From Coraliomargaritaceae bacterium (GTDB taxonomy: Bacteria > Verrucomicrobiota > Verrucomicrobiia > Opitutales > Coraliomargaritaceae), in contig CBFHKU010000004.1 of NCBI GenBank assembly GCA_965656495.1, forward strand, positions 1-64,000: DNA of 64,000 nucleotides, in the 5' to 3' direction. Shown here piece after piece: positions 31,896 through 57,740 of this stretch. How positions within the stretch are numbered: the stretch's first letter is position 1; each line of letters starts with the position of its first letter. The notes beneath the pieces are model-generated. The model saw only the letters and a program-made list of their open reading frames with translations. It did no database searches and had not been told where the DNA came from. A program made the position numbers and the translations under genes.

Positions 31896-32018
31896 AGTAA
31901 TTATTAGTAAACAGCAGTGAAGTATCGCATGCGGCGGTAGTTTCAGCAATGCCACTTCCTGAACCAAAAAAGTAAAATTATGATACTACCCGGCGCTCAG
32001 CCGACTCCCGCTTAAGCC

Positions 32019-34792: not shown

Positions 34793-34797
34793 AGGGA

Positions 34798-36177: not shown

Positions 36178-36283
36178 TGGTGACAGCAGTATTAATCCTT
36201 CAATTTAGAGAAAATCAAAAGGTTCGTAAATGGTAAGCTTTGATGCTGTAATACAAATCACCGAAACTCAATGCCCGCCTCCA

Positions 36284-37987: not shown

Positions 37988-38014
37988 TATTTGTTTCAGG
38001 GATTCGTATTTTAA

Positions 38015-39475
38015 TCAATCGGCGTAAATCTTTTGGACGAGTTTTCCGGTATCGAGGAAATGCTTGTAGGGCATGCGGTCATAACTGCGGATTTCCGCCG
38101 CCACTTTGGGGTCGGCGCGATCGGGCCAGGGATTCTTTTTGAGGATTGCCATGATTTCGGCATGCGCAGCGCGTTCCTCTTCGGTTTTCGCATCGCCCAC
38201 CAAAGTGTAGCGCGAGCGGCGGTAATCCCCGTTGGTGCGATAGAGACGTCCCTCGCCTGAACCGTAAACCGGATCGACTGCCTCCAACATCCAGTCCTTG
38301 GTACGCGCCATGCGGGCAGTTGCGATGTAACTCATAATCCATTCACGGTGTGTCGCTTTCGCCCCGCTCAAAAAAGGACGGAGGCTTTTACCGTCAAGGG
38401 CGTGACCACTTGGTAATCGCACACCGGCGTAATCAATTAGAGTTGGGAAAATATCGGAGAACTCAACCAGCTCGCCACTGGAACCACGGGGCTTCACCAG
38501 CCCCGGCCCATCGATAATGAGCGGAACCCGCGGTCCGTCCTCGGTGGCGTGCATCTTCATCCCGTCTTTTGAATCACCGTTGTCCGCCGTAAAAATAACG
38601 ATGGTGTTGTCCCGCACCCCCGCGTCTTCGAGGGCGTCTACAAGGCGCCCCATTGTCGCATCAATATATCGAAACATATCCCCTAAACTGCCGCCTTTAT
38701 TTGTGCCGGGGCGACCGCGAAACGGCATGGTCGGCAATCCGCCACCCGCAATGTCGTGCACGAGGTTCAGCGGATAATACGCCAGGAAAGGCTGATCCCG
38801 TTCGCGCTTGATAAAATCGACGAGGTAATCGGTGAAAATGTCCGGCCCGAAATCTTCGGGACCGGTTTCCTTTAAGCGCCCGTTTTCAATGACACAGGGA
38901 TGCCAGTAGCGCGAGGGAATGCGCGGGGCGTTGGGAAAATTATACCGGCCCTCGTAAAGACCGCTAAAGACTTCGCCGGCGGGGATCGCGCTCGGATGAT
39001 CGGCGCGATGACAAAATTCATCGAAACCGACTGTGCCATCGACCTGCCCGCCCAGCGCCATATTGTTCCCAACCAAAACGGTACGGTAGCCGTTGTCGCG
39101 CAAGGCCTGGGCAAAGGTCAGGTGACGGGTGGTCCAGTTGTAGCGGTCGCTGCTTTTTTCATTGATGCGCAAGTCATTGTGCCAAACCCCGGTTCGGGAG
39201 GCATAGCGCCCGGTCGTCAGGAGGGCGCGCGAGGAGGAACACATCGGGGTTGCCCAGGCAGTCCGAAACATGACCCCGCTTTCCGCGAGCGCATCGATGT
39301 GTGGGGTCTCCGCCGCGCTGGCATCATAACAACTGAAATTGCGGGGACTGAGATCATCGACCACCACGATTAAAAAATTGGGGCGGCTTTCCGTGGCACC
39401 GACCGGCGCGAGACACCACAAAACCGCAACGATAAGGGCATGGAATACGAGATTTGATTTCATGATTGGGAACAA
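38015..39475 (-). CDS. Sulfatase (arylsulfatase-like), variant CSSSR signature
   Basis: RPNFLIVVVDDL, TPHIDALAESG, CSSSRALLTTGRY, ADNG. Confidence 0.9.
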   Translation of the reverse strand: MFPIMKSNLVFHALIVAVLWCLAPVGATESRPNFLIVVVDDLSPRNFSCYDASAAETPHIDALAESGVMFRTAWATPMCSSSRALLTTGRYASRTGVWHNDLRINEKSSDRYNWTTRHLTFAQALRDNGYRTVLVGNNMALGGQVDGTVGFDEFCHRADHPSAIPAGEVFSGLYEGRYNFPNAPRIPSRYWHPCVIENGRLKETGPEDFGPDIFTDYLVDFIKRERDQPFLAYYPLNLVHDIAGGGLPTMPFRGRPGTNKGGSLGDMFRYIDATMGRLVDALEDAGVRDNTIVIFTADNGDSKDGMKMHATEDGPRVPLIIDGPGLVKPRGSSGELVEFSDIFPTLIDYAGVRLPSGHALDGKSLRPFLSGAKATHREWIMSYIATARMARTKDWMLEAVDPVYGSGEGRLYRTNGDYRRSRYTLVGDAKTEEERAAHAEIMAILKKNPWPDRADPKVAAEIRSYDRMPYKHFLDTGKLVQKIYAD

Positions 39476-39478
39476 GGG

Positions 39479-40663
39479 TTAGTGCTGTGTTTGGCTTGAG
39501 AAATAATCCAAGGCGGCGCGGTTCGCCTCCATGACGGCTTCCTGCAGAACGGGATATGCCGAGCCGTCCTCGCGCAGCATCCCCTGCTTCAAAACACCCT
39601 GGTGTTCATTGAAGCGGTCGATATACTGACAGCGATGATAGCCGATGATGTAGGGCCTGGCACTCGCCTCCGCCAAATAATTGCGATACATCGTCGCGAC
39701 TGCTTGCTCGCTCTCTAGTTGCTTCCACATCGTCTTGTCATACTGCGGCGTCGCGAAACTGCATTGATGATCACAAATGAGGATCGGTTTTCCGTATTTC
39801 GCATAGAGCGCATCAAAATATTCTGCCTCAAAACGATCACTGCCGGGCTGAATCGAAAGCACGTCAATATACGGCAAGGCCGCCTCGACCACCACCTCGG
39901 GGTGATCACCCAAAAGATAACGCTCACCAAAAATCAAAACGCCGGGATGCAGACTGCGGGTCGCCTCCCCGATCAATTTATAATGTGCCTGCGCAATGAG
40001 CGCGAGGAATCCCTCGTCCGTGGCAGCTTTGCCCTCGCTCGCACAGTCATCGAGATATTGCTCGTAGCGGATGCGACCCGGTGCATTGGCGGGCAGTTCG
40101 CGAATCGCAATTACCCAATTCGTGCCCCGGGTTCGCAGGGAACGCTCCAAGTCCCACTGCGGGGTGTCCGTCCAATAATACCCGATCAGATTGGGATTGC
40201 CGGGATTGCGGCACATCCAGCGCAGTTGCTTCAACTTCTCCGCCTGCACCTTTGGATCAAAGACATCGGGGTAAAAGAATTCCGCATCGGGAAGGAAATT
40301 GGAATTCCGCTCAAGAAAGGAATCCTCCATGTAGGGCATGCGGGGGTAAATTTCCTGCGGCGAACCATAACCGGCGGTGTTGTAATGCCAGCCTTCCAAG
40401 TCTTCAGCCGCGGCTTCTGAATAACGCGACCAGTCACCCCCGTATGCTTCCGCGAAAATATCGGGCTCGGCAGCTTCCTGCACCGCATTGATGTGATTGA
40501 TCCCCAGCGTGAAAAAGGGCTCGCCCTCCGGATCCAGCAAAACGTGGCGCGCGCCTATTTTGTCCAATCGAAAACGGCCCTCCGCGGCAGAATCGGCCGG
40601 GGCGGATGCATTCGCGGATATGATAGCAGCAGTCATGATGGTATTGAATGATTTGGTTTTCAT
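39479..40663 (-). CDS. GH50/agarase-like TIM-barrel protein with atypical catalytic positions
   Basis: LLDPEGEPFFTLGINHI, NTAG, PNLIGYYWTDTPQW, LIFGERY, KPILICDH and PYIIGYH follow the GH50-like motif order. Confidence 0.65.
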   Translation of the reverse strand: MKTKSFNTIMTAAIISANASAPADSAAEGRFRLDKIGARHVLLDPEGEPFFTLGINHINAVQEAAEPDIFAEAYGGDWSRYSEAAAEDLEGWHYNTAGYGSPQEIYPRMPYMEDSFLERNSNFLPDAEFFYPDVFDPKVQAEKLKQLRWMCRNPGNPNLIGYYWTDTPQWDLERSLRTRGTNWVIAIRELPANAPGRIRYEQYLDDCASEGKAATDEGFLALIAQAHYKLIGEATRSLHPGVLIFGERYLLGDHPEVVVEAALPYIDVLSIQPGSDRFEAEYFDALYAKYGKPILICDHQCSFATPQYDKTMWKQLESEQAVATMYRNYLAEASARPYIIGYHRCQYIDRFNEHQGVLKQGMLREDGSAYPVLQEAVMEANRAALDYFSSQTQH

Positions 40664-41997
40664 TTAAGACGCGCGGTATCGTGTTGCCGAAGTAGCGTTT
40701 CCATTTTCAGGCGCACTGCCGCAAGCTCGGCTCCGCATTCGGTCGCAGCGAGCGGCTTTTCTTCCAGCTCATCCTGAGCGAGGTCGTAAAAATCGCCATT
40801 CCGGTAAAGTTTGTAGCGCTCATTACGCGCAAAGGATACATCCACAACCCCGGGATATCGCCGCTTCATAAAGTTGGGAATTTCATACCAACAATAGATA
40901 AACTCGCGGGGCGCGCCCGCCTTGCCCTCCAACTGCGGCAAGAAGCTCTGTCCGTTGAATCGTTCCATCCCAACAGGTTTAACCCCCGCAAGCTCGCAGA
41001 AGGTCGGAAGGAAATCGCTGAAATCCACAAGGTCGGCGCTCACCGCGCCCTGCACCACCCCAGGACCGGCAACCACTAGTGGTACGTGCGTGCCGGCATT
41101 GGTGGTCTCGCCCTTCCCGCCGCGCACCTTGCGTCCCTTGATTTCCGAGACGGTATTGCCCAGGCTACCGTTGTCGGATGTGAAGAAAATATAAGTCTGC
41201 TCACTCAAACCCGCCGCCGCGACCTGCGCCATCACGCGACCCACCATTTTGTCCGTATATCGCACCATATCGTCAAAATACTCGGGATCCATGCTCCCGC
41301 GTTTCGCGCCGGGGCTCTCGGGGTTCCAGTCCTCCGAGTCCGGATTCGGGACAAAAGGCGAGTGCGGCAAGAGCATGGGATAGTAAACCAGGAAGGGTTC
41401 GTCCTTGTGCGCCTCGATGAATTCCCCGATGAAATCGACGATCAAGTCCGGCCCAAATTCACCGTTGCGATAATCCAGCTCCACTCCGTTCCGTTCCAGT
41501 TGAGGATTCTCATACCGCGTATCGGTCCCGGTCGCATTGCTGAAGTTACTGCGCGTGTGCTGCCAAAGCAGGGACGACTCAAAACCAAAATGTTGCGGCG
41601 CATCACGCGTTTGCCCCAATTGCCATTTGCCCGCGATACAGGTGGCGTAGCCAGCATCCCGCAAAAGATGCGCAAAGGTGGTCTCCCCGCGTTTCAGCTG
41701 CGCAAATCGCGTGTAATTATAAACATTATAACGACCCGTCATGATCTGCACCCGCGAGGGCGTGCACGCCGGATTCGAATAACAATGCTCAAAACACAGC
41801 CCCCGCTCCGCCAAGCGGTCAATATTCGGAGTGGAATAGGATGTCCCCCCGTTGGCGCCAATACATTCATACCCCATATCATCCGCCATTATGAGGATGA
41901 TATTCGGAGGACGCTCAGCGCCAGCCGCGCCAGCCGCGATCAAAACGGCTCCTATGAAAAGAACCATCCGCATCAAAAATATCCAAATCTGTTTCAT
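40660..41997 (-). CDS. Sulfatase (arylsulfatase A-like)
   Basis: Start at ATG 41997 (ATGA overlap with the upstream gene); PNIILIMADDMG, CTPSR, GKWQL, SDNG. Confidence 0.95.
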   Translation of the reverse strand: MKQIWIFLMRMVLFIGAVLIAAGAAGAERPPNIILIMADDMGYECIGANGGTSYSTPNIDRLAERGLCFEHCYSNPACTPSRVQIMTGRYNVYNYTRFAQLKRGETTFAHLLRDAGYATCIAGKWQLGQTRDAPQHFGFESSLLWQHTRSNFSNATGTDTRYENPQLERNGVELDYRNGEFGPDLIVDFIGEFIEAHKDEPFLVYYPMLLPHSPFVPNPDSEDWNPESPGAKRGSMDPEYFDDMVRYTDKMVGRVMAQVAAAGLSEQTYIFFTSDNGSLGNTVSEIKGRKVRGGKGETTNAGTHVPLVVAGPGVVQGAVSADLVDFSDFLPTFCELAGVKPVGMERFNGQSFLPQLEGKAGAPREFIYCWYEIPNFMKRRYPGVVDVSFARNERYKLYRNGDFYDLAQDELEEKPLAATECGAELAAVRLKMETLLRQHDTARLK

Positions 41998-44000
41998 TCG
42001 TAGTGTAGCGCGACCGCGCAGTGACAGGAAAATTGAGGAATCACAACCGAACCGCAGTCCCCCTCCCACGTAATCGGGAGATCAATTCCGTCCGGAACGA
42101 GCCTCGCGTGCGTGATCTTTTCGGGCAAATCAAACCGCAGCGGCACCTCGTGGAGCGGCGGCATGTCTTCAATGATTTCACAATTCCCACGCCGCATCGG
42201 CGGAGCGTAAAGCAAATGCGCGACATAACGCCCCTCCCCCGCTTGATGCAGAAAGGTTAGACGCCCCGCGCTCGGGAGCTTTGCTGCTACCATTGGACGC
42301 CTTCGCAAGCGCTGCAAAACATTGTAGAACAAGTCGCGGTGCAGTCGCGCTCCGTGCTTGAGATACATCCAGTCCAATTCCGGAACAATCGTGATTATAT
42401 TTCCCTTGCGAATGATCGCGGGATGCTCGGCCGGTTCCAACCGATGCGGAGTGTTCTGATGCGAGCAATAATGCTCTGCAGTACGGCTGAAAAAAGGCTC
42501 GTGAAGCTGCGCCAAAACTTCTGCATCTGCATGCGCTTTAAAACGCCGCGCCGGTTTATAATTCAAGAACGGGCTAGCCACCAGACCCTCCGCCAAAGTA
42601 CCCTCCACTGAGAGGTAATCCCGGTCGTAGTTCGCCTCACCTAAATAATCCGCACCGATATCGAGCAAGACCTTGCCTTCCGCATCCAGCGCCCCGCTCC
42701 CCAATACCAGCAAATTGCCCCCCGCCTTCGCAAAGGCGTTCAGGCGGTCGGCCGTCGCCGCATCGAGGCAAGCCGCGCCGGGAATCAGAATGCATTCGTA
42801 TGCACGCAGGTCTTTCGAAAAATTCGCGACCTCGAAGTTGATCTGTTTATCGAGCAGCATTTTGGCAAGGCCCTCGTCATGCGCGGCGCTGAAGCTGCGC
42901 CAAAAACCCAATCGCGCGACCGGTTGCCCACCGATCCCGTAAGCCTCGATTTCCTTAACATAGGCATAGGCTTCCCCGATGTTACGATACGTCGCTGAAT
43001 CCATTTTCCCACTTGGATGCAACTGGTCGCCAAAATTACAAGCGGCACCCCAGGCGATCATCGAGGCGGCCTCATAACGCAAGGCCTCGGGGTGCTTGAA
43101 GCCGCCAAACTCCCCCCACGCGGTGTGGAATTTGCCACTCATCGCGGTTATGCCATAGCCAGCCTGCAGGAAGTATTTCGATTGCAGCGGCAATTTATCA
43201 TACCCGCCCCAAACCGTGGGCAAGTCTTCCAAATCCTGCACGGTGTTGCTTCCAAACATCCGGTGCCGAAAATTCGCGCCGCTCTCAATCGCTGTGGTTC
43301 CGTTAAAGAAAACCTGCGCGGTGGGATGATACCGCGAAATCAATTCCCGCAGTGCCTTGCAATGCCCTTGCATCGTATCGGCAGTGAACCCTTCAACCGC
43401 AGACGCATCCTCGAAATCAATGCCTGCCGCTATCATATCGCGGCGACAGGATTCGCAAAAACAATGCCGCTCCACCTGATAAATATCGAACCAGAAGCCA
43501 TCGCTGACATAGCGTTCACAGAGTTCCTCAACCTGCGCCATAATGTGCTCGTGATAAGCGGTGTTGGCGCAGAGAAACTTCCAGTAAAAATCCGGCAGCG
43601 GATCCTCCGCCTTGGCGTCCCCGGAACGGCTTCCGCTCGTGACATACTGGCCCTCCCGGTCGCGCACGCACCATTCGGGGTGCGCCTCCGCGTCATTCGC
43701 AGACCATCCAAAGGTGTAATAGATCTGGGTCCTGACCCCGATCTCACGACAGGCTTCCAGTTGCGCACCCAGCAAATCAAAATCGAGGTTCGGGTGCATC
43801 CGCCCCACTTTGGTTGGATAGTAGCTCCAACTGTGATGACATTTCGCAAATAGATTGATCGAATCAATATGCCCCACGCGCAGGGCCGCTTGAAAATCCT
43901 CTTTCTTAAATCCCCTCCCAATCTCCATCAAATGCTCGGAGGTGTGAAAATCCAAATGCACTTGGCGGCGACCGGGAGGATATTTTGAAGGGGTTTGCAT
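41994..44000 (-). CDS. GH151-like (alpha-L-fucosidase-type) glycoside hydrolase with GH42-like trimerisation domain
   Basis: RQVHLDFHTSE, FAKCHH..SYYPT, DGFWFDI, KFHTAWGEFGG, GDQLHP; likely start ATG 44000; no signal peptide. Confidence 0.75.
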   Translation of the reverse strand: MQTPSKYPPGRRQVHLDFHTSEHLMEIGRGFKKEDFQAALRVGHIDSINLFAKCHHSWSYYPTKVGRMHPNLDFDLLGAQLEACREIGVRTQIYYTFGWSANDAEAHPEWCVRDREGQYVTSGSRSGDAKAEDPLPDFYWKFLCANTAYHEHIMAQVEELCERYVSDGFWFDIYQVERHCFCESCRRDMIAAGIDFEDASAVEGFTADTMQGHCKALRELISRYHPTAQVFFNGTTAIESGANFRHRMFGSNTVQDLEDLPTVWGGYDKLPLQSKYFLQAGYGITAMSGKFHTAWGEFGGFKHPEALRYEAASMIAWGAACNFGDQLHPSGKMDSATYRNIGEAYAYVKEIEAYGIGGQPVARLGFWRSFSAAHDEGLAKMLLDKQINFEVANFSKDLRAYECILIPGAACLDAATADRLNAFAKAGGNLLVLGSGALDAEGKVLLDIGADYLGEANYDRDYLSVEGTLAEGLVASPFLNYKPARRFKAHADAEVLAQLHEPFFSRTAEHYCSHQNTPHRLEPAEHPAIIRKGNIITIVPELDWMYLKHGARLHRDLFYNVLQRLRRRPMVAAKLPSAGRLTFLHQAGEGRYVAHLLYAPPMRRGNCEIIEDMPPLHEVPLRFDLPEKITHARLVPDGIDLPITWEGDCGSVVIPQFSCHCAVALHYE

Positions 44001-44070
44001 CAATAATGAATATCGCTGAAGCAGATGTAACTCTAAAATATAAGCCAATCAATCTGCCAAAACAAGCGAC

Positions 44071-47325: not shown

Positions 47326-48681
47326 CTAGGCTCCCGTGGAGGGCCGGGCATCTGACTCACGCGCCTCAAGGTCGGCGAGCACCTGCGAGAATTTCTCCCC
47401 GTCCAAACGGTAGAACAACAGTGCCACCATACAGGCGAGCGAGAAACCCGCTGGTACGATGTTGAAAAGCCACACGATTGCGGTCTGCGCTGATTCGGTC
47501 AATTCGGTGTTGGCGACATAACCGGAAAAGGAAAGCACGATCGCCGCAAAACTACCGCCGAGCGCCATGCCCGCCTTAAAGGTAAACGAGAAAAAGGCGA
47601 AGGGGATGCCCTCCGAGCGAATCCCGCTTTTCCATTGTCCGTATTCCACCGTGTCGGGGACCATCCCCCATTGGCAAATTGAGCAGAACATCATGGTGGT
47701 GGAAGCCACCATCGAAATACCCGTGAAGAGCATGAAGGAATCGCCCGCCACAAAATGCCGGGTCAGATTTGCAATTACCACCACCGCGCTTCCAAAAATA
47801 AAGATATTCCGTTTCCCGTATTTGCCGGTCAAAAGCGGAGTCAGGACGACTCCTAAAACATTCGCAGGTAACATCCATTGAAAGAAGACCGATTGCAGGT
47901 CGGCATTCCCAAGGATGTATTTAAAGTAATACAAACTCACCGAATTCGCGATGACCCAGATGCAGGTGTTCAGGAACATTGCCAGCGAGAGAATTAACAG
48001 CGACTCGTTCTTCAGGATGATGGGTATGATATCCTTGAGGTGATACTTTTCGGTGGGCGGAGCGAGGCGTTCCTTCGATTTTAAACCCGCGTAGATCAGT
48101 AGCGCGCTGGAGGCAATGGCATAACAGACTGCCAGGGCAAAGAAACCCTCGGCCTCGGTCTCGAAATTCTTTAGGAAGGGACGCGTCCCGATACTGACGA
48201 CGCTCATCGCGATAATGACCGCGAAGAACATGCGCAGGGTGGAAATCCAGGCGCGCTCCTGCTGGTCCTGCGTCATCACCGCAGAGATGGAGGAATAAGG
48301 CAGACCCACCGCGGTAAAGACCATCCCGTGCAGGATATAAGTGACATAGGCATACACCACCTTCATGGAGGGTGAGATGTCCGGAACAAAGAAGCAGGCC
48401 AATAAAAGCAGATTCAGAGGAATCGCACCAAAGAAGACATAGGGACGAAAGCGACCCCAGCGGGTGCGGGTGTGGTCCGCGATATAACCCATAATGGGAT
48501 CATTGACCGCATCCCAAATACGGGCCGCCAAGAAAAGCCCCGCCACGTGCGCCGGAGAAATCCCGAAAACATCCGTATAAAAATAAGCGAGAAAGAACCC
48601 AATGAGTTGGAAGTTCAGATTGATTCCGAGATCTCCAATACTATAATTGAAGAGCTCTGTCTTTTTCAGAGGGCGTAGCAT
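47326..48681 (-). CDS. GPH-family MFS transporter (xyloside/oligosaccharide:cation symporter)
   Basis: ARIWDAVNDPIMG, TRWGRFRPY, PDTVEYG..KSG.R.EG. Confidence 0.93.
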   Translation of the reverse strand: MLRPLKKTELFNYSIGDLGINLNFQLIGFFLAYFYTDVFGISPAHVAGLFLAARIWDAVNDPIMGYIADHTRTRWGRFRPYVFFGAIPLNLLLLACFFVPDISPSMKVVYAYVTYILHGMVFTAVGLPYSSISAVMTQDQQERAWISTLRMFFAVIIAMSVVSIGTRPFLKNFETEAEGFFALAVCYAIASSALLIYAGLKSKERLAPPTEKYHLKDIIPIILKNESLLILSLAMFLNTCIWVIANSVSLYYFKYILGNADLQSVFFQWMLPANVLGVVLTPLLTGKYGKRNIFIFGSAVVVIANLTRHFVAGDSFMLFTGISMVASTTMMFCSICQWGMVPDTVEYGQWKSGIRSEGIPFAFFSFTFKAGMALGGSFAAIVLSFSGYVANTELTESAQTAIVWLFNIVPAGFSLACMVALLFYRLDGEKFSQVLADLEARESDARPSTGA

Positions 48682-48711
48682 AAATGATGGGGTTGGGATT
48701 GGGGTTGGGTG

Positions 48712-50850
48712 CTAAGCGCTGCAACTCGCGACCGTCTCCTCGGCAGCTGCCGGAGCGCCGGATTTCATCGCTGCCGAATCCATCCATAGAATATTGGTCA
48801 CGATGCGCGGATAGTAAAGACTGCCGATCGGTTTGCCCGATGCAAATTGATCGGAACAGGCCTGAAACTTGGATCCATTGATCTCCCAATAGACGTGCGC
48901 CGCATCTGCCCGCGCTTCCTCTCCGTATTGAATGCCGAGGATTTCGCGAACTACATATTGATTCAGGCATATCTTACTCATCCAGGAATTGTCGGCGCTA
49001 CTGGAAAGTTTCCAGCCGCCATCCTCATACAAACAAACTCCCGGCTTCAATACGTAGCCGATGTGCTCCTTCAGCATTTGGATGTACGAGCCGAATTCGC
49101 CCTCCTCCGTAAGCAGATCCCCCAAACCCATCTTCCAGGGATAGATCAAGGCCTCCACCGCCGGAATGATGGCACTCTTGTTCTTTCCGTCCAAAACCGC
49201 CGGTATGAAACCATGCTGCGTGTCAAATGATGCTGTGAGGGTCGAAGCACAACGAACCGCCGCCGCGTGCGCTTCCTTCGCGAGGCCCCTGTCTCCCAAT
49301 TCCGCAAACATCATTTCCAATGCCAGATAGGAAGCCCAGCATTTGCCACCGAGGTACACATTCCGGCGTGCCTGCCCCAGCGAATGATCCAAAGAATCGT
49401 AGGTCGTGATCTCACCCCCACCCTTAGTCCGCGAGCTTTCGAAACTCATCAAGCCGTCCCGTTGCGCCGGATCAGGGTGATCGCGGTTCAACAGACTTTG
49501 CAAACAACGTCCGAGCAAATCCTTGTGCTGCCGGAGGAAATCCGCATCCCCGGTCTGGTTGACATACAGGCCCGCGCATAAAACCCAGTTGGTTAACTGC
49601 TCGCAGGTCATATAAGAGAAACACTTGCGGTCGATCCCCACACACTCATAACAGGAATACTGCGCCGGACTAAAGTGATTCCCCACGCCCATGTCGTGCG
49701 TGAATGAAACCCCGCCCTCGAGCAAGCTCGCGGGATCTTCCGGCGCGAAGACCTGATCTTCGTATTGATAGCGATTGACGAATTGCTCCAGGACATTCCG
49801 CACCGTCCATGGATTCAGCTTCAACTCGAAAAAGATCATATCCACCGTCAAATCGAGGGTGTTCATCATTAAGTATTCGCCCTCGTTGATCACCCACAAA
49901 GGCTTCCCCGATTCGTCGATCAACCACTCGCTGGAGCCGTAGTAACTGCGGGTGGCATGCGCAATCAGGAATTGCTGCGATTCGCTCAAACCACTTGCCA
50001 GTAATTCCGCGTCGCGGTCTGCCGCCAGTTTCAAATACTTCGCCTCGTGCTCAAAGGCATAATCAAACACCTCGTGAATATTGGAAAAGTGGCGTGTGTA
50101 CCAATAACGGGCTTTCAAATTAAAAGTAGCCTGCCCCTCGATGAAGTAGCCCAGGACGATGCGTACTGTTTTCGAAGCACCGGGCTCGACCACAAAGGAA
50201 ATACCCGCCACTGGCCCCAGTGCGAAATTCGGGGTGCGCTGCTCACGCTCAAGGGCCTGCTCTACCCCAAACTCCACAAATTCCGAAACGCCCGCTGTAT
50301 CACTCGCAAAGCCCATGCGTTCACGCGTCACTGCTCCTTTGTACGACCCGTGCTGCGAAAGCGGCGACCAGGGAGTCGATCCCTCCAACGCGAAAAACCC
50401 TTCCCAGGATTCCTCGCTCTCATTGCGAAGCTCCAGTTCCAAAAAAGTGGCGGGCAAACTCGCAAATTTGAGTTCCTCCGCCTCGGAATGAGCCGGGTCC
50501 GGAATTTCGAAAAACGGCGTGCTCACTTTAAAACGTATCCCTTTCGCTTTAAACTGATCCGTCGCCCAATCGTAGCGGCGCTCAATCAAGGATTCATCCA
50601 GAATCGTCAGCCCTTTGTCGGCGGCTTCATCCGGTTTGCTATAGCGCTCCGCCTCGTTCGAAATCCCCTTGTAAAATGGCAGCGTCACCATTTGCCCCGA
50701 AGCGGTCCGATACCCGACAAAAACCGCACTGTCGGCGGGGCTGCCCCGCTCGAGTGCCATGCCACCCTCGGCGCCATGCATTCCAACGGTAAAGGAAGCG
50801 TGCGCTCCCATTGGTGAGTGCTGTGCGTGAAAGGAACTTGAGGGTAACAT
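48712..50850 (-). CDS. Beta-xylosidase (GH52)
   Basis: AQHSPMGAHASFT, WVINEGEYLMMNTLDLTVD, EITTYDSLD.SLGQAR, NSWMSKI, YYPR. Confidence 0.95.
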   Translation of the reverse strand: MLPSSSFHAQHSPMGAHASFTVGMHGAEGGMALERGSPADSAVFVGYRTASGQMVTLPFYKGISNEAERYSKPDEAADKGLTILDESLIERRYDWATDQFKAKGIRFKVSTPFFEIPDPAHSEAEELKFASLPATFLELELRNESEESWEGFFALEGSTPWSPLSQHGSYKGAVTRERMGFASDTAGVSEFVEFGVEQALEREQRTPNFALGPVAGISFVVEPGASKTVRIVLGYFIEGQATFNLKARYWYTRHFSNIHEVFDYAFEHEAKYLKLAADRDAELLASGLSESQQFLIAHATRSYYGSSEWLIDESGKPLWVINEGEYLMMNTLDLTVDMIFFELKLNPWTVRNVLEQFVNRYQYEDQVFAPEDPASLLEGGVSFTHDMGVGNHFSPAQYSCYECVGIDRKCFSYMTCEQLTNWVLCAGLYVNQTGDADFLRQHKDLLGRCLQSLLNRDHPDPAQRDGLMSFESSRTKGGGEITTYDSLDHSLGQARRNVYLGGKCWASYLALEMMFAELGDRGLAKEAHAAAVRCASTLTASFDTQHGFIPAVLDGKNKSAIIPAVEALIYPWKMGLGDLLTEEGEFGSYIQMLKEHIGYVLKPGVCLYEDGGWKLSSSADNSWMSKICLNQYVVREILGIQYGEEARADAAHVYWEINGSKFQACSDQFASGKPIGSLYYPRIVTNILWMDSAAMKSGAPAAAEETVASCSA

Positions 50851-51360: not shown

Positions 51361-52212
51361 ATGAATCCTCTACTGATTCTGGGAGCGGCGGGGGCGGCAT
51401 GCCTCTATGCCACCGGTTCACTGCAAATCAAACGCGGCCTCAACAATGGTGCCAGCCTGCGGCGCACCGTTGCCACCACCAATGTTTTCATGGCGCTTTG
51501 GTCCCTGCCGCTTTTCTTTGTCGCGCGTGGCGATTTTGAGCTCGTCTCCTGGCTCACTGCCATGCTCGCCGGGGTCGCCCTTTTTCTGGGACGCATCCTC
51601 TCCGTCAAAGCCCTTGAAGTAGGTGACCTCTCGATCGTGGGCCCCCTCCTCGGTCTCAAAACCCTCCTCGTCGCGATTTTCTCCTTCGCCACCGGTCAGG
51701 CCGAACTCAACACCTGGCTCTGGACCGCCGCCATAACCGCCACCCTCGGCGTCATTCTCATTCAACGCGGTCCCCGCAAGCTCTCCACGAATCGACGCCA
51801 GGCCGCCGCCTACGCCGCCGGGGCAAGCATCCTTTTCGCAGGCTGTGATATCCTCGTCGTTGAAGCGCGTTCCCAACTCGGTATCGGCTGGCTCTCTCCG
51901 ACCCTTTTTATTACCCTTGCGCTCCTTGTTCCCTGCCTCGGTAAACTCACCCCGCCTGCCCCGGAGGCGCGCAAACCGATGTATCTCGGTTCCGTCATCA
52001 TGGGATTCCAAACGACCTTCGTTATCTTCCTCATCGGCCTCACCGGACAGGCCGTCATGATTAATATTATCTACGCTTCCCGCGCTATCTGGACCGTTGT
52101 TATTGACCGTTTCTATGGACGCGGCGAAGACGTTGCGGCCTTCTTCGTCTGGCGACTCCTCGGTGCCGCCCTGCTGGTCTTCTCGATTATACTGGTTATT
52201 TTTCTCCGCTAG
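51361..52212 (+). CDS. EamA/DMT-family transporter
   Basis: 283 aa, about 10 TM in two repeats; ALEVGDLSIVGPL motif. Confidence 0.8.
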   Translation: MNPLLILGAAGAACLYATGSLQIKRGLNNGASLRRTVATTNVFMALWSLPLFFVARGDFELVSWLTAMLAGVALFLGRILSVKALEVGDLSIVGPLLGLKTLLVAIFSFATGQAELNTWLWTAAITATLGVILIQRGPRKLSTNRRQAAAYAAGASILFAGCDILVVEARSQLGIGWLSPTLFITLALLVPCLGKLTPPAPEARKPMYLGSVIMGFQTTFVIFLIGLTGQAVMINIIYASRAIWTVVIDRFYGRGEDVAAFFVWRLLGAALLVFSIILVIFLR

Positions 52213-53005
52213 ATAAAATTGCGCGGTTCAGCTTCCCTGAAACAAATCCCTCCGCATCGAATTCAACCTCGCGGAAACCCAAGCCCTGAATCGCCGCCGT
52301 CAATTTTTCCCGCTGCGTCTCTAATTGATCCAAGGCATCTGCCTCCACTTCCACCCGCGCGGTCTCGCCATAATGGCGCACGCGGTTGATGCGAAAACCC
52401 GCTTCAGTCAACAGCGCCTCCGCCGCCTCAATCTGACGCAATTTCTCAATCGTTATACGTTCACCATAGGGCACCCGTGAGGATAAACATGGACTCGCGG
52501 GCTTATCCCAGCAAACCAAATTAAAGTGTTCCGCCAGTGCCCGCACCCCCGCTTTGTCCACCCCGCAATCCACCAAAGGCGAGCGCACCTTAAATTCCTC
52601 CGCCGCCGCCAAGCCGGGCCGGTAATCCCCCGTATCATCCGTGTTGGTTCCGTTCAAAACCCACCAGTCCGGATAATCCCCCGCCAACCCAAGCATTTCA
52701 TCGTAAAGGGTGTGCTTGCAAAAATAACAACGGTTGGTCGGATTCTCGAAATAATTGGGGTTCTCCATTTCGGCAGTCGCAATCACCCGGAGCGGCAAAT
52801 CCATCCCGCCCGCAAAATTTTTTGCGGCTTCCAGATCCGACAATTTTAAACTCGGAGACGCCGAGATCACCGCAAGGACGCGCTCCTTTCCCAAAAAATG
52901 CCGCGCCAAATACGCTACCAGCGAACTGTCCACCCCACCGGAAAAAGCCACCAAGGCACCGGGACATTGCCCATACCAAGCCTTGAGTGCTTCCAGCGCT
53001 TTCAT
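52196..53005 (-). CDS. larE: NPN cofactor sulfur transferase LarE (PP-loop)
   Basis: AFSGGVDS, NRCYFCK, GTNTDD..DYRPG, KPASPCLSSR. Confidence 0.93.
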   Translation of the reverse strand: MKALEALKAWYGQCPGALVAFSGGVDSSLVAYLARHFLGKERVLAVISASPSLKLSDLEAAKNFAGGMDLPLRVIATAEMENPNYFENPTNRCYFCKHTLYDEMLGLAGDYPDWWVLNGTNTDDTGDYRPGLAAAEEFKVRSPLVDCGVDKAGVRALAEHFNLVCWDKPASPCLSSRVPYGERITIEKLRQIEAAEALLTEAGFRINRVRHYGETARVEVEADALDQLETQREKLTAAIQGLGFREVEFDAEGFVSGKLNRAILSSGEK

Positions 53006-53077
53006 GTTGTTTTGCTAAGACCCATTAACCAATCTGTCAACTTGCCCTCACCACCCTTTTAATTAAAAAGAACCCCT

Positions 53078-54301
53078 ATGCGTATTTTGCACTACCATTG
53101 CCCCGCCGGAATCAGCGGCGATATGAATCTCGCTGCAATGGTGGCGCTCGGCGTAGACCCCGCCGCCCTCGAAGCCGAACTGCGCAAACTCCCCTATACC
53201 GGTTGGTCGCTCCAATTCGAAACCACTCAACGCGGCGGCATCAGCGGCCTCAGCTGCAAGGTCATCCTCGATCACGATCACGACCACCAGCACAGTCACG
53301 ACTACGAATCCGGGCACTCCCATCACCGTACCTATCGCGAAATTCGCGAGGCCATCGAATCCAGCGCCCTCGCGGCGCCCATCCAAAAGGATGCCCTCGC
53401 CTGCTTTGGCGCCCTCGCGGAAGCGGAGGCGGCCGTGCATGGCATTGAACCGGAAGCGGTGCACTTCCATGAAGTCGGGGCCCTCGATTCCATTATCGAT
53501 ATCGTAGGTGCCGCCATCGCCTGGCATTTGCTCGGCATCGACCGCATTGCCTGCTCCACCCTCGAGGTCGGGGGAGGCACCGTAAAATGCGCCCACGGCG
53601 TCATGCCGGTCCCCGCGCCCGCCACCGCTCGACTCCTCGAAGGCGTCCCCTTCACATCCGGAGCCACCGACCAGGAATGCACCACCCCGACCGGTGCCAC
53701 CCTCCTCATCGGCAAAGCCTGCGCCTTCGGAACCCGCCTGCAAGGCACCCAAGTCAAAACCGCCATCGCGACCGGACACCGCGACGACCCCAATCTCCCC
53801 AACGCCCTCTACCTCTCCCTCTTTGAAACAGCCGGGGAAAGCCCCGCCCTCGAATCCACTGAAACGATCTGGGAACTCGCCGCCAACATCGATGACATGA
53901 CCGCAGAGGCCATCGCATTTCTCTGCGAGACGATCCTGGAGGCGGGCGCAGTGGATTGTTGGCAAAGCCCCGCCACCTTCAAAAAGGGCCGCCTCGGTTC
54001 CATTGTCCACGCCCTTGTCGCCGCCGAACAAATCCAATCGGTCGAAGCCTGCTTCTTTAAACATAGCCGGACCCTTGGCGTGCGCCGCAAACCCTGGGAA
54101 CGTTCCATCCTTCAACGCGAAATCCAATCCCTCGAAACCCCCTTCGGTTCGGTCCGCGTTAAAACCGCACAAGGTCCCGATGGTTCGACCCACCGGAAAA
54201 TCGAATACGAGGACTGCGCCCGTATCGCCCGCGAGCAAAAAGAATCCCTCGAATGGGTCCACGCCCAAATCGATCCCCTCCTTGACGAACCTCAATCCTA
54301 A
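53078..54301 (+). CDS. larC: NPN cofactor nickel insertase LarC (single fused ORF)
   Basis: GISGDM, His-rich linker, AEA.VHG, VHFHEVGALDSIIDIVG, HGVMPVPAPAT, TTPTGA, NIDD, KKGR, EYED. Confidence 0.95.
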   Translation: MRILHYHCPAGISGDMNLAAMVALGVDPAALEAELRKLPYTGWSLQFETTQRGGISGLSCKVILDHDHDHQHSHDYESGHSHHRTYREIREAIESSALAAPIQKDALACFGALAEAEAAVHGIEPEAVHFHEVGALDSIIDIVGAAIAWHLLGIDRIACSTLEVGGGTVKCAHGVMPVPAPATARLLEGVPFTSGATDQECTTPTGATLLIGKACAFGTRLQGTQVKTAIATGHRDDPNLPNALYLSLFETAGESPALESTETIWELAANIDDMTAEAIAFLCETILEAGAVDCWQSPATFKKGRLGSIVHALVAAEQIQSVEACFFKHSRTLGVRRKPWERSILQREIQSLETPFGSVRVKTAQGPDGSTHRKIEYEDCARIAREQKESLEWVHAQIDPLLDEPQS

Positions 54302-54304
54302 GCC

Positions 54305-55036
54305 ATGAAAGCACGCGAAATCCTCGAACAAGTCCAACGCGGCGAACTCGACCTCGACGCCGCCCTCGCCGAATTGCAGGGCTTTGAAGATCTCGGCCAC
54401 AGCCGCGTCGACCTCGCCCGCGAGCAACGCAACGGGGCCCCCGAGGTGATCTACGGTGAAGGAAAAACCGCCGACCAAATCCGTGAAATCATGCAAAGCA
54501 TGGCAAAGCGGGAACAGAATACCCTCGTGACCCGCCTCGATCCCGCCAGCGCTGAGGCGCTGCGCCAAACCTTTCCGGATGCCAACTATTGCCCGCAGGC
54601 ACGAATCCTCACGCGCCTCCATTCCGCCCCGGCGCCCGCCGCTACAAAAATCGCCCTCGTCTGCGCCGGTACCTCCGACCTGCCCGTTGCCGAGGAAGCA
54701 CGCCTCACCGCCGAATTTTACGGCAACCCCGTTGAAACAATCTACGACGCCGGAGTCGCTGGTCTCCATCGCCTCCTTGCCAGCGTTGATACGATCCGGG
54801 CCTGCCGCGTCGTCATCGTGGTGGCGGGCATGGAAGGCGCCCTCCCCAGCGTGGTGGGCGGACTCGTGGATGCCCCCGTTATCGCAGTCCCCACCAGCGT
54901 CGGTTACGGCTCCAGTTTTGAAGGCCTCTCCGCCCTCCTCGGGATGCTCAATTCCTGCGCGAGCGGACTGAGCGTTGTCAATATCGACAACGGATTCGGC
55001 GCGGGCTTCCTCGCCAACCGTATCAATCGGCTTTAG
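54305..55036 (+). CDS. larB: NPN cofactor carboxylase/hydrolase LarB
   Basis: PEVIYGEGKT, AGTSDLPVAEEA, DAGVAGLHRL, AGMEGALPSVV, PTSVGYG, NSC, VVNIDNGFGA. Confidence 0.96.
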   Translation: MKAREILEQVQRGELDLDAALAELQGFEDLGHSRVDLAREQRNGAPEVIYGEGKTADQIREIMQSMAKREQNTLVTRLDPASAEALRQTFPDANYCPQARILTRLHSAPAPAATKIALVCAGTSDLPVAEEARLTAEFYGNPVETIYDAGVAGLHRLLASVDTIRACRVVIVVAGMEGALPSVVGGLVDAPVIAVPTSVGYGSSFEGLSALLGMLNSCASGLSVVNIDNGFGAGFLANRINRL

Positions 55037-56037
55037 GCATTGTGCTGCCTGCGGTGACAGCAGTCCGCCTCGTAGTGTTTCGCGCCGTGCTGCAGCGCAG
55101 CGTAGTCCGGTGAATCCGGCGCATCATTCACCGCAAAGCGCGCGCGTTCCTCGGCCTTGAAGGGTTGCGCCGCACAACCGGCTACCGCCTGATCGACGTA
55201 TTCTACCTTGTCTGCTCCGACCACGTGACAGCAGACCTGCGGATAACTCAAAGAATACTGCAAGACTTCCTGGGCATTGGTCGTTTCGTGCAGATGGGTG
55301 CGACGGCTCCCGCCAAATCCCTTCATGCCCAAGACCGCGATTTCATGCTTTTCACACAAGGGCATGATTTCGTTTTCAAAAGCGCGGGATTGCAAAGCAC
55401 CCACCACCGAGACCGGCATCAGCGTCGCGTCCCATTGATAACCCCCCTCAATAATATCGCGATGAACCTTGGGATCGGTGTGACCCGTAAACCCGGTGTA
55501 GCGAATCTTGCCCTGCTGCTTCGCCAACTCCAGCGCTTCGATCGCGCCCTCTTTGCGATAAGCATCATGGGCATCGTCCTTGCTCACATGATGCAGCATC
55601 CATAGATCCAAGTGATCCGTCTTCAGGCGGCGCAGGGAATCCTCCAGCATCCGCATTGCACCCGCCACATCCGGGGTGTAATGATCACTGTGGTAATTGC
55701 AAAATTTCGTCATCAGGAAGATCTCGTCCCGCCTCCCCTTCAACGCTTCACCCATGTATTCCTCAGCTTTCCCGCCATGGTAATCCCAGGCATTCTCAAA
55801 GAAATTCACCCCCAGATCCAGCGCGCGGTGCGCGATCGCATTGGCCTCTTTTTGCGAGCCCGCCATATACAGCGTGTGCCCTCCGAAACCCACCACCGTC
55901 AACATGTCGGCGTGGCGGCCAAATTTCCGCTTCGGAATCACCACCTTAGCGGCGGCTTCCGCCCAGGCCGTGCTGCTCTTTAAAGCCGCAGCCGATCCAA
56001 GTGAAAATTTGAGGAAGTTGCGACGTGAAAGACTCAT
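55033..56037 (-). CDS. Tat-exported aldo/keto-reductase-fold protein
   Basis: Start ATG 56037, MSLSRRNFLK (twin-arginine) ...AWA; GFGGH, FFENAWDY, LMTK, SLRRLKTDHLDLWMLH, GFTGH. Confidence 0.9.
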   Translation of the reverse strand: MSLSRRNFLKFSLGSAAALKSSTAWAEAAAKVVIPKRKFGRHADMLTVVGFGGHTLYMAGSQKEANAIAHRALDLGVNFFENAWDYHGGKAEEYMGEALKGRRDEIFLMTKFCNYHSDHYTPDVAGAMRMLEDSLRRLKTDHLDLWMLHHVSKDDAHDAYRKEGAIEALELAKQQGKIRYTGFTGHTDPKVHRDIIEGGYQWDATLMPVSVVGALQSRAFENEIMPLCEKHEIAVLGMKGFGGSRRTHLHETTNAQEVLQYSLSYPQVCCHVVGADKVEYVDQAVAGCAAQPFKAEERARFAVNDAPDSPDYAALQHGAKHYEADCCHRRQHNA

Positions 56038-56203
56038 GACTTTTGGGGTGTTGACTGAAATGCTGCGTGTTGCCGATATTAACAACTTGAGAATGTCCAA
56101 AACATAGCTTGGAACCATCCGATTTCAAGCATGGATGCTCCAAATACCCCATGTCTGGAATCCAAACCGACCGCGACCCCGGAAGCGCATCCGAGCCAAG
56201 CCT

Positions 56204-56875
56204 TTAAGGTTGCACGAAGACAAACAAAGTCTTTTCCCCGACTACCATACCCGAGGAATTCAACGCCCTGACCACCACTTTTTCCCGCATTCCCGCACCG
56301 TAAGCGACCGGTTCCACCATCAACACATACTGCCCCGACTTTTGTGAATCGGGCGCGGCCTTTACCTGCAAAACCTCCCCATTGAAGCCCAGCGCACCCA
56401 GCTTCACCGCATGATCGGGATGCAACTGTACCCGCACCTCCCGTGGCCCCACCGCCCCGCGCTTCCAATAAAGGATTTCCGGCTGCAACTGCATCGCCTC
56501 CACAATATTCACCGCTAATTTCAAATACGCCACCGGTTCCGGCATCCCCTCGAGAAAAACCCGCAGCACACTCTCATTCCGCCCCTGCCGTTTACCCTTC
56601 TCGAAAACCGCCGCCACAACCGTCGATTCCCCCGCAGCCAGCACCCGCTTCGCCGGCAAAGCAGCCGTGCAACCACAACTGCTCTCCACCCGATTAAACC
56701 GCAACTCCGCAGCGCCCGTGTTCCTGACGCGGTATTCCACCCGCACCTCCGCATCCCCCGGCCCCATTTCCACTTCCGTCTCAGTCCGTTCCCATTCCAA
56801 TTCCACTTCTGGCGCAGCCGATGCCAGACCCGCAAGAACTAGGACCATCAAAAGCATCCATCCATACCGCTTCAA
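56204..56875 (-). CDS. DUF1573-domain secreted protein
   Basis: Signal peptide; NTG..L....VESSCGCT motif. Confidence 0.85.
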   Translation of the reverse strand: MKRYGWMLLMVLVLAGLASAAPEVELEWERTETEVEMGPGDAEVRVEYRVRNTGAAELRFNRVESSCGCTAALPAKRVLAAGESTVVAAVFEKGKRQGRNESVLRVFLEGMPEPVAYLKLAVNIVEAMQLQPEILYWKRGAVGPREVRVQLHPDHAVKLGALGFNGEVLQVKAAPDSQKSGQYVLMVEPVAYGAGMREKVVVRALNSSGMVVGEKTLFVFVQP

Positions 56876-57312
56876 CGCTCCACCTCGCCTTCAATCCCCC
56901 GCTCACCATCCCAACAAATCAAAATCACCGCCCCCAGGAGCAACAGACCGTTCCGTACCAACAAAACCGCATAAGGCGCCATCAAACCCATCGATCCAAA
57001 ACATCCACAGTCAACCTCCAGACCCCGTAGCCACGCGCTCAGGTGCAGACCCATAAAGCACAACAAAAGCAGACCGATCACCCAGGCACTCCCCCGCCGC
57101 ACACCCGGAAACAAGAGACCCAGCCCCGCCCACAATTCCAGCCAGGGCAAACCCAACGCCACCCAGCGCGCCCAGTCCGCTCCCACCACCTGATAGGATT
57201 CCACCGCCGTTGCAAACGCCAGCGGATCGCGCAACTTCGATGCCGCCGCCCACACAAACGCCACCCCCAGCACCACCCGCAAAAGCAAGCCTATCCAAAA
57301 CCTCGGCTTCAT
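56872..57312 (-). CDS. MauE/DoxX-family redox-associated membrane protein
   Basis: R..LG..F..A...KL.DP..F, LPWLEL, DCGCFG, RN; start ATG 57312 (ATGA overlap). Confidence 0.88.
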   Translation of the reverse strand: MKPRFWIGLLLRVVLGVAFVWAAASKLRDPLAFATAVESYQVVGADWARWVALGLPWLELWAGLGLLFPGVRRGSAWVIGLLLLCFMGLHLSAWLRGLEVDCGCFGSMGLMAPYAVLLVRNGLLLLGAVILICWDGERGIEGEVER

Positions 57313-57740
57313 TCCTGCAAGGCCTCCCAGCCACCCTTCAACCAATAAACCTCCGCTCCCGTCACCGCTTCCCGCAAACGCATTGCCAATCGCTTACTCG
57401 ACCCACAGCCCGCCTCCGCGCAATACACCACCATCACCCTCGGTTCCTCCAGCCAAACCATCATCAATTCCATCACCCCCGTTCCCCAATTCGTTTCATT
57501 CAAATGAATCGCACCCGGTTCATGCCCCTCCGCATACTCAGCCGCAGTCCGCGCATCCACCCACAGCACCGCCTGCCCCCGCGCCGCCGACACTGAAATC
57601 TCCTCCTTGTCCACCCATTCACCCGCCGCCCACGGCACCGGTGACCAGCCCACTAAAACCGACAACACACTGCCCCCCAAAGTCAGTAGCAACAAGATCC
57701 AGCATTGGCGCACAATCAACATCCACCCAGCCTGAACCAT
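57309..57740 (-). CDS. Membrane-anchored rhodanese-like protein
   Basis: VDAR..EY..GH.PGAI, VVYCAEAGCGSS, LKGGWEA. Confidence 0.88.
   Translation of the reverse strand: MVQAGWMLIVRQCWILLLLTLGGSVLSVLVGWSPVPWAAGEWVDKEEISVSAARGQAVLWVDARTAAEYAEGHEPGAIHLNETNWGTGVMELMMVWLEEPRVMVVYCAEAGCGSSKRLAMRLREAVTGAEVYWLKGGWEALQE

Follow-up and report, generated by a model that had tools for sequence, protein, structure and literature searches.

A larA-less nickel-pincer cofactor locus with a putatively Tat-exported, NphT-like aldo-keto reductase in a marine Verrucomicrobium

For a decade it was an open question which enzymes rely on the nickel-pincer cofactor where an organism synthesizes it but possesses no LarA. 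For the aldo-keto reductase (AKR) fold the answer came with NphT of Alicyclobacillus cellulosilyticus, a hydride transferase of that fold that depends on nickel-pincer mononucleotide (NPMN) (PDB 9YEB; Semersky et al., Nat Chem 2026, PMC13524815). In that paper, LarC neighbourhoods without LarA were mined and AKRs were found to co-occur with lar genes in 427 instances. Lys200 of NphT binds NPMN covalently (+450 Da) and His144 coordinates the nickel; the AKR tetrad (Asp47, Tyr52, Lys75 and His106) is retained, and Asp47 also contacts the cofactor, the D47A variant keeping <10% activity. The cofactor cavity has no space for adenosine monophosphate, the enzyme is inactive with NAD(P)(H), and arabinose, galactose and ribose are disproportionated to lactone and alditol, with transhydrogenation between substrates also taking place. 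The His/Lys motif is carried by 798 homologues and is missing from canonical AKRs, and 40% of lar-linked AKRs have the His without the Lys. The second known client fold is that of an ornithine cyclodeaminase which uses the dinucleotide form of the cofactor (via citations in PMC13524815). In the present study we analysed a 64,000-nucleotide stretch of DNA (hereafter the window; positions 1 to 64,000 of contig CBFHKU010000004.1, assembly GCA_965656495.1) from a Coraliomargaritaceae bacterium of the phylum Verrucomicrobiota, in which larE, larC and larB lie beside the gene for an AKR-fold protein with a twin-arginine signal. Judging from sequence comparisons, we consider it likely that this locus is a nickel-pincer cofactor system in which an NphT-type AKR takes the place of LarA as the client, and that this client is first loaded with cofactor and then exported by way of twin-arginine translocation (Tat).

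The window AKR is probably a periplasmic member of the known NphT family. The kind of enzyme is therefore not new, and the exported variant is what is added; as the question of an AKR-fold client was answered in June 2026, the locus no longer opens it. The original prediction, which had been made from the letters of this DNA, cautioned that AKR-fold enzymes using the cofactor might already be reported, and the publication of NphT (PMC13524815) proves the caution correct. A search of several supplementary files of that paper for verrucomicrobial taxon names gave no match, and its large homologue lists may already include the subfamily described here.

NphT (chain 9yeb_A) was the second-best match of the window AKR among PDB sequences, with a phmmer E-value of 1.6e-21 for the single sequence and of 5.3e-29 for a profile built from 62 sequences. 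The single-sequence alignment (80 bits) covers residues 36-212 of the window AKR and sets the His of GFTGH against the His of ITGH in 9yeb_A, the chain numbering of which is that of the paper plus 3 (the aligned His of LH, chain position 109, being His106). Lys239 was placed by the profile alignment (...iavlGmk on ...VGLMTIK), the end of which is chain position 203, i.e. Lys200. His186, Thr184, Lys239 and Met238 of the window AKR are thus equivalent to His144, Thr142, Lys200 and Ile199 of NphT, and in the catalytic tetrad Tyr86, Lys111, His149 and Glu81 are equivalent to Tyr52, Lys75, His106 and Asp47. In addition, Gly53 and His54 (GFGGH) stand at the positions of Ala20 and Ala21 of NphT, whose backbone amides touch the cofactor. 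Across the window AKR and the 120 homologues that match it best, all with an identity of at least 50%, the residues His186, Lys239, Tyr86, Lys111 and His149 are invariant (121/121 sequences). The residue-level statements of the original prediction, that the tetrad Tyr, Lys and His are kept, that Glu stands at the Asp position and that extra His residues lie in GFGGH and GFTGH, all hold in this comparison. Since the tether lysine is both present and invariant, covalent binding of NPMN is indicated, as in NphT.

The structure prediction that had been proposed as a check returned a confident AKR fold: the AlphaFold (AF2) model of the window AKR has a predicted local distance difference test score (pLDDT) of 87.4 and a predicted template-modelling score of 0.84, and the top Foldseek matches are all AKRs (E-values down to 3.8e-19), in agreement with an AKR (alpha/beta)8 barrel. 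Of the 291 positions of the PF00248 profile, only 3-198 are matched, and the part of the barrel that binds the cofactor, at the C-terminal end, therefore appears to have diverged; for a small cavity that would not admit adenosine monophosphate this is at most an indirect hint. Close homologues belong to marine Opitutia/Puniceicoccaceae-like Verrucomicrobiota, near bin UBA7350. The C-terminal tail, HGAKHYEADCCHRRQHNA (residues ~317-334), is rich in His and Cys, has low pLDDT and is not conserved in homologues; it could be metal-binding or mere drift.

The genome that contains the window is assembled into 31 contigs that total 2,062,385 bases, and its completeness is 99.36%. A profile search of the whole genome, less 8,000 bases that were kept out of the analysis, for the LarA domains PF09861 (Lar_N) and PF21113 (LarA_C) gave 0 matches, so that the lack of LarA, originally noted within 64 kb, extends to the genome at large. 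Lar_N was likewise found in 0/25 other genomes of the organism's own family, with 180 positive genomes in a 401-genome sample of the phylum. For the ornithine cyclodeaminase family, no match in the genome exceeded the cut-off, there being two Rossmann-level matches of 18.5 bits against a cut-off of 24 bits. Of the client folds known, three in all, these profile searches leave only the AKR in the genome. The genome's other full-length AKR (C2:181625) is canonical, with GISNY and FSPLAQG at the two sites and hence neither the His nor the Lys, which makes the motif specific to the window AKR gene; no other gene of the genome has the complete His/Lys pair known from a nickel-pincer client. Outside the window (G000:C2:38266-38709; locus L086) the genome encodes a second atypical AKR, which measures 414 aa and has a C-terminal extension. 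It has S-T-H at the nickel-ligand site and no lysine at the tether site, and may belong to the His-only class for which non-covalent cofactor binding is suggested in PMC13524815.

The 401-genome sample was searched both with the AKR protein and with the LarB model, and every AKR match listed at E <= 1e-20 was scored at the two motif columns (His and Lys). Such a match was found in 59 genomes. LarB is present in all 46 genomes with a His+Lys AKR and in 9 of the 10 with a His-only AKR (G283 lacks it), and is found in neither of the two genomes that have motif-less AKRs only (G007 and G033) nor in the single genome with a partial AKR frame in which the motif could not be scored (G048). Among the genomes without an AKR match at this threshold, 191/342 have LarB. 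Within the organism's own family, LarB occurs in 16/26 genomes (the window genome, G000, included), each of which has a His+Lys AKR (16/16; 15 orthologues and, in G057, a paralogue), and none of the 10 family members that lack LarB gave an AKR match. Similarly, a genome of genus g2, g4, g8 or g9 has either both the AKR and LarB or neither of them, and the pattern as a whole spans many families of the phylum.

With regard to physical linkage, the AKR gene adjoins larB in 14 of the 17 genomes with a strict orthologue (E <= 1e-111, at least 54% identity); the two genes lie 1 Mb apart in G054 and on separate contigs in G306, and the location of LarB in G005 is outside the data. In public loci, AKR and lar genes are adjacent in 8 of the 15 informative cases, the AKR identity in the 7 non-adjacent ones being 54-73%, and LarB was found elsewhere in 4/5 further genomes with an unlinked AKR orthologue. 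The co-occurrence thus outlasts physical linkage, which favours a functional relationship over hitch-hiking. The association of this AKR subfamily with lar genes, which the original prediction had put forward as a point to be checked, is therefore seen both in gene neighbourhoods and in gene content.

The same survey brought to light two further groups. A distinct AKR clade, distributed across the phylum, has the pattern S-F/I-H ... M-E-P-L, with the His and without the Lys (loci L055, L060, L061, L064, L069, L070, L072 and L073), and several of its members have RRDFL or RREFL N-termini; 8/9 sample genomes with this pattern or its close variants (M-G/T-P) are LarB-positive, G283 being the exception. 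In family f11 (genus g44), LarB occurs in 17/31 genomes together with neither Lar_N nor an AKR match at E <= 1e-20, and three genomes from the order to which the organism belongs (G330, G375 and G399) show the same picture. From the f11 genomes it follows that further kinds of client must exist, and genomes of this type likely hold another, unrecognized nickel-pincer client or a very divergent AKR.

The Tat pathway moves folded, cofactor-loaded proteins, and the periplasm is without an NAD(P)H pool. The N-terminus of the window AKR contains an exact S-R-R-x-F-L-K motif (SRRNFLK, residues 4-10), followed by a weakly hydrophobic stretch and by A-W-A at residues 24-26, after which (before Glu27) the signal is likely to be cleaved. 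Both RR and Phe8 are retained in 117/117 ungapped homologues down to 50% identity, and 35/62 members of the AKR family match the Tat signal model PF10518 at E <= 0.01. TatC is encoded in the genome (PF00902, 161 bits; G000:C9:72989-73621), and RR motifs are likewise seen in many of the phylum's paralogous AKRs, both His+Lys and His-only. The twin-arginine motif of the original prediction is thus borne out. Comparable RR-x-F-[LIVM] signals open 14 other open reading frames of the genome, most of them 410-500 aa long, a size typical of exported Gfo/Idh/MocA-type oxidoreductases, and it thus appears that numerous cofactor enzymes leave the cytoplasm of this organism by Tat. A full-text literature search, which omitted most subscription journals, found no publication joining the nickel-pincer cofactor with twin-arginine signals or with the periplasm, and in PMC13524815 Tat, the periplasm and signal peptides go unmentioned.

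From these data we infer the following sequence of events. LarB, LarE and LarC, none of which has an N-terminal signal peptide, would build NPMN, with nicotinic acid adenine dinucleotide (NaAD) as the starting material, in the cytoplasm, where the folded AKR would be loaded, Lys239 forming the covalent thioamide link and His186 serving as the fourth ligand of the nickel. Tat would then carry the holo-AKR over the inner membrane, with removal of the signal after Ala26; as the cofactor originates in the cytoplasm and would be bound to a barrel that is already folded, Tat would be the fitting route and Sec would not. In the periplasm the enzyme would shuttle hydride between carbonyl and alcohol substrates by way of its bound cofactor, Tyr86 acting as the acid/base together with Lys111, His149 and Glu81, and, as for NphT, aldoses or other aldehydes would be disproportionated or transhydrogenated in a redox-neutral manner. 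The core of the original prediction, namely a Tat-exported AKR that works with the nickel-pincer cofactor in the place of NAD(P)H, is supported at the level of sequence by the His/Lys motif, by the LarB co-occurrence and by the missing LarA. Of the hydride-transfer reactions that had been proposed, disproportionation (and, in addition, transhydrogenation) is published for the fold, whereas epimerization is without precedent in it.

Several points weigh against the system as proposed. The AKR gene is convergent with larC-larB and so shares no transcript with them; tight packing is common in this 2-Mb genome, and within a single bacterial family the genes may have stayed neighbours by inheritance and not by selection. 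The relatives also share descent, so that the co-occurrence counts overstate independence, and no LarB was found in G405, a genome of not known completeness with an unlinked AKR orthologue. A nickel transporter of the NicO family was not found in the genome, a search that did not extend to other nickel importers. As regards the AKR itself, position 81, which is Asp47 in NphT, is occupied by Glu, a conservative substitution that may or may not matter (the relatives divide into 65 with Glu and 56 with Asp), and the profile alignment to NphT ends at Lys239, short of the equivalents of Trp218, Tyr219 and Gly248. In addition, the best Foldseek matches are the NADP-binding AKR11C1 and AKR14A1, among PDB structures to 2026-04-08 and so without 9YEB, and AKR11C1 (1ynp) outranks 9YEB by sequence. 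It could be argued that this is an AKR of the usual kind, dependent on NAD(P)(H), which is exported by Tat with a tightly bound nicotinamide cofactor and which adjoins larB through chance packing of genes, given that its best sequence and fold matches in the PDB include NADP-binding AKRs (1ynp and 4aub), that the genes form no operon and that the neighbourhoods of orthologues are otherwise variable. However, the His+Lys pair, which is missing from canonical AKRs (PMC13524815) and from the genome's own canonical AKR, is invariant here; LarB accompanies it in every sampled genome that has it and is lacking where only motif-less AKRs occur; and the Pfam match stops before the diverged C-terminal part. 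An ordinary AKR therefore seems to us very improbable. Nor do we find it credible, save with the slightest probability, that the lar genes serve some other client, such as the His-only AKR at G000:C2:38266 or a protein of unrecognized fold, and that the exported AKR is unrelated to them. The 414-aa protein with its S-T-H, the large share of lar-linked AKRs that have His without Lys (PMC13524815) and the f11 genomes with LarB and no recognizable client can all be cited for this, but it leaves unexplained both the invariant His/Lys pair of the window AKR and its strict co-occurrence with LarB, and a second client would add to the first and not replace it.

Two alternatives accept the nickel-pincer cofactor and differ from the proposed system in one part each. 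The RR might not be a working Tat signal, in which case the AKR would use the cofactor yet remain cytoplasmic or sit on the inner side of the membrane. In line with this, the scores of both Tat hidden Markov models fall just short of their curated cut-offs (PF10518, 22.5 against 22.7 bits; TIGR01409, 15.7 against 16.7 bits), only just over half of the relatives match PF10518, and NphT itself is without a signal peptide, its residue 4 aligning to residue 34 of the window AKR. On the other side stand the exact motif with its mildly hydrophobic stretch and A-W-A, the presence of TatC and the RR of many paralogous His+Lys AKRs of the phylum; moreover, complete conservation of RR and Phe8 disfavours a non-functional N-terminal extension, and retention in the cytoplasm is, in our view, unlikely. 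A slightly smaller chance attaches to the possibility that the window AKR binds the adenine-dinucleotide pincer form (NPAD), or binds its cofactor non-covalently, with a different reaction such as epimerization perhaps resulting. PMC13524815 leaves NPAD binding by some AKR homologues open and does not establish the physiological substrate of NphT; against this, epimerization is unreported for the fold, the single Tyr-centred acid/base set resembles that of NphT, and the tether lysine points to covalent NPMN. The loaded and exported NphT-type AKR therefore remains the reading that we prefer.

The arrangement of the genes is given in Table 1. The original prediction of larE, larC and larB beside the AKR gene, with overlapping stop codons, agrees with our coordinates, and the products of all three lar genes score above curated cut-offs. 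LarC is a single protein with both LarC1 (TIGR00299, 185.1 bits; cut-off 90) and LarC2 (NF052512, 127.9 bits; cut-off 50). As larB begins 4 bases past the end of larC, the two are probably co-transcribed; larE is divergent from them. In the LarE protein, the PP-loop SGGVDS lies at residue 22, and Cys93, Cys96 and Cys173 make up a CXXC-C set; in Thermotoga LarE such a set binds a [4Fe-4S] cluster, the enzyme working catalytically rather than sacrificially (PMC9283937), so the cysteines suggest that the window LarE is of the [4Fe-4S] type. The stop codons of larB (TAG, 55034-55036, + strand) and of the AKR gene (TAA, 55033-55035, - strand) overlap. The open frame of the AKR extends over 55033-56118 (-), within which the ATG at 56037 opens MSLSRRNFLK; since the homologues are 329-340 aa long, we take this ATG as the real start.

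Table 1. Positions in the window of the lar genes, the NphT-like AKR gene and neighbouring features
Feature	Position	Strand	Remarks
larE	52196-53005	-	TIGR00268 286.8 bits (cut-off 150); ATP-dependent sulfur insertase of nickel-pincer cofactor synthesis
larC	53078-54301	+	PF01969 419.8 bits; nickel-inserting cyclometallase
larB	54305-55036	+	NF033503 305.3 bits (cut-off 175); NaAD carboxylase/hydrolase
NphT-like AKR, 334 aa	55033-56037	-	PF00248 112.4 bits; presumed nickel-pincer client
Twin-arginine signal peptide of AKR, residues 1-26	55960-56037	-	MSLSRRNFLK...STAWA
His186 codon (GFTGH) of AKR	55480-55482	-	Equivalent to nickel-coordinating His144 of NphT; codon position checked
Lys239 codon (GMKGFGG) of AKR	55321-55323	-	Equivalent to NphT Lys200, covalent cofactor tether; codon position checked
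His/Cys-rich C-terminal tail of AKR	55036-55090	-	
EamA/DMT-family membrane transporter	51361-52212	+	PF00892 30.8 bits; convergent with larE, 17-base overlap
Rhodanese, MauE/DoxX and DUF1573 genes	56204-57740	-	Upstream of AKR gene, same strand
568-aa frame	53063-54769	-	Antisense to larC and larB
Six sulfatases, GH10 xylanase and GHL6-type hydrolase	28731-44048	-	
GH52 beta-xylosidase, GPH symporter and AraC-type regulators	47326-50850	-	Beyond the sulfatase/GH10 block

Several neighbours of these genes deserve comment. The EamA/DMT gene accompanies the lar genes across the organism's family: it adjoins larE in loci L002, L003, L005, L007, L008, L016 and L017 and still does so in G054 (L080), where the AKR gene sits 1 Mb off; EamA homologues (48-51% identity) also occur near the AKR gene in L009 and L015, loci without nearby lar genes. 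Nickel, a precursor or a product might be what the transporter carries, and whether it belongs to the system is uncertain. The rhodanese, MauE/DoxX and DUF1573 genes were considered as operon partners of the AKR gene and rejected, because they are kept only in the closest relatives (L001, L003, L004 and L016); for the same reason they are not part of the nickel-pincer system, and the trio looks like a separate thiol/redox module. The 568-aa frame translates into a sequence rich in Gly, Ala and Glu and runs across two genes that are themselves well supported; it is almost certainly spurious, a product of GC-rich DNA.

The glycoside hydrolase (GH) and sulfatase genes at 28731-44048 and 47326-50850 form a utilization locus for a sulfated or xylan-like polysaccharide, with other sugar genes also present in the window, and the original prediction had the AKR act on sugars released by this adjacent locus. 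We annotated the neighbours of the unlinked or distant AKR orthologues in G054, G306, G005, L006, L009, L010, L012 and L014 and found no recurring partner at these loci, the genes there being housekeeping, tRNA synthetase, efflux pump, sulfatase and regulator genes. As the orthologues sit in such unrelated contexts, the adjacent GH52/transporter and sulfatase genes were rejected as a clue to the substrate, and the link of the AKR to the polysaccharide locus is not borne out.

The locus offers a clear natural case of a LarA-less nickel-pincer system, in that the genome is small and nearly complete and holds a single His+Lys AKR. Its conserved Tat signal would imply periplasmic nickel-pincer chemistry and the export of a protein with a covalent organometallic cofactor, neither of which we found in print. 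It is conceivable, though we are inclined to doubt it, that this is the first nickel-pincer enzyme outside the cytoplasm, with a Ni-C cofactor fixed covalently to an AKR barrel and taken through Tat. If so, marine polysaccharide-degrading Verrucomicrobia would gain a self-contained periplasmic hydride shuttle, independent of the nicotinamide pool, which could disproportionate or transhydrogenate aldoses or aldehydes. Since this streamlined genome of 2 Mb has no second AKR with both cofactor-binding residues, it may be mainly for this one that the three biosynthetic genes persist. Across the sampled phylum, moreover, His+Lys AKRs track LarB without exception and many carry RR signals; their RR-bearing members, together with the His-only paralogues, would then represent a large unexplored repertoire of periplasmic nickel enzymes. 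For enzymology, a cofactor-retaining hydride shuttle of the periplasm would be an attractive NAD(P)-free biocatalyst, and for marine carbon cycling it would point to an unrecognized nickel requirement in abundant polysaccharide degraders.

Among known systems, glucose-fructose oxidoreductase of Zymomonas mobilis, a protein of the Gfo/Idh/MocA Rossmann fold, is exported by Tat with bound NADP. The proposed scheme resembles it in the non-dissociable hydride carrier loaded in the cytoplasm, in the export of a folded protein and in the redox-neutral sugar chemistry of the periplasm, and the two enzymes differ in fold and cofactor. Canonical NADP-binding AKRs share the fold and the catalytic tetrad with the window AKR and are its best structural and sequence matches, but they have Ser-Asn or Ser-Ser where it has Thr-Gly-His and Ser-Pro-Leu where it has Met-Lys-Gly, as the genome's own canonical AKR exemplifies, bind a dissociable dinucleotide and are cytoplasmic. 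LarA of the Lactiplantibacillus plantarum lar operon uses the same cofactor, supplied by the same LarB/LarE/LarC pathway and held by a Lys thioamide and a His ligand to the nickel (PMC13524815); in contrast, its fold is unrelated, its domains are missing from the window genome, and it performs intramolecular racemization or epimerization of 2-hydroxyacids with two His residues. The closest likeness is to NphT, with which the window AKR has in common the AKR TIM barrel, the nickel-ligand His, the tether Lys, Thr142/Thr184, the catalytic Tyr, Lys and His, and a position near larB, larC and larE in a genome region without LarA. Nevertheless, the window protein is a distant homologue of NphT and not an orthologue, with Glu in place of Asp47 and a non-conserved His/Cys-rich tail; its gene is convergent with the lar genes, whereas nphT is in line with them; its host is a marine mesophilic Verrucomicrobium and that of NphT a thermophilic Firmicute; and it has a 26-residue twin-arginine signal where NphT has none.

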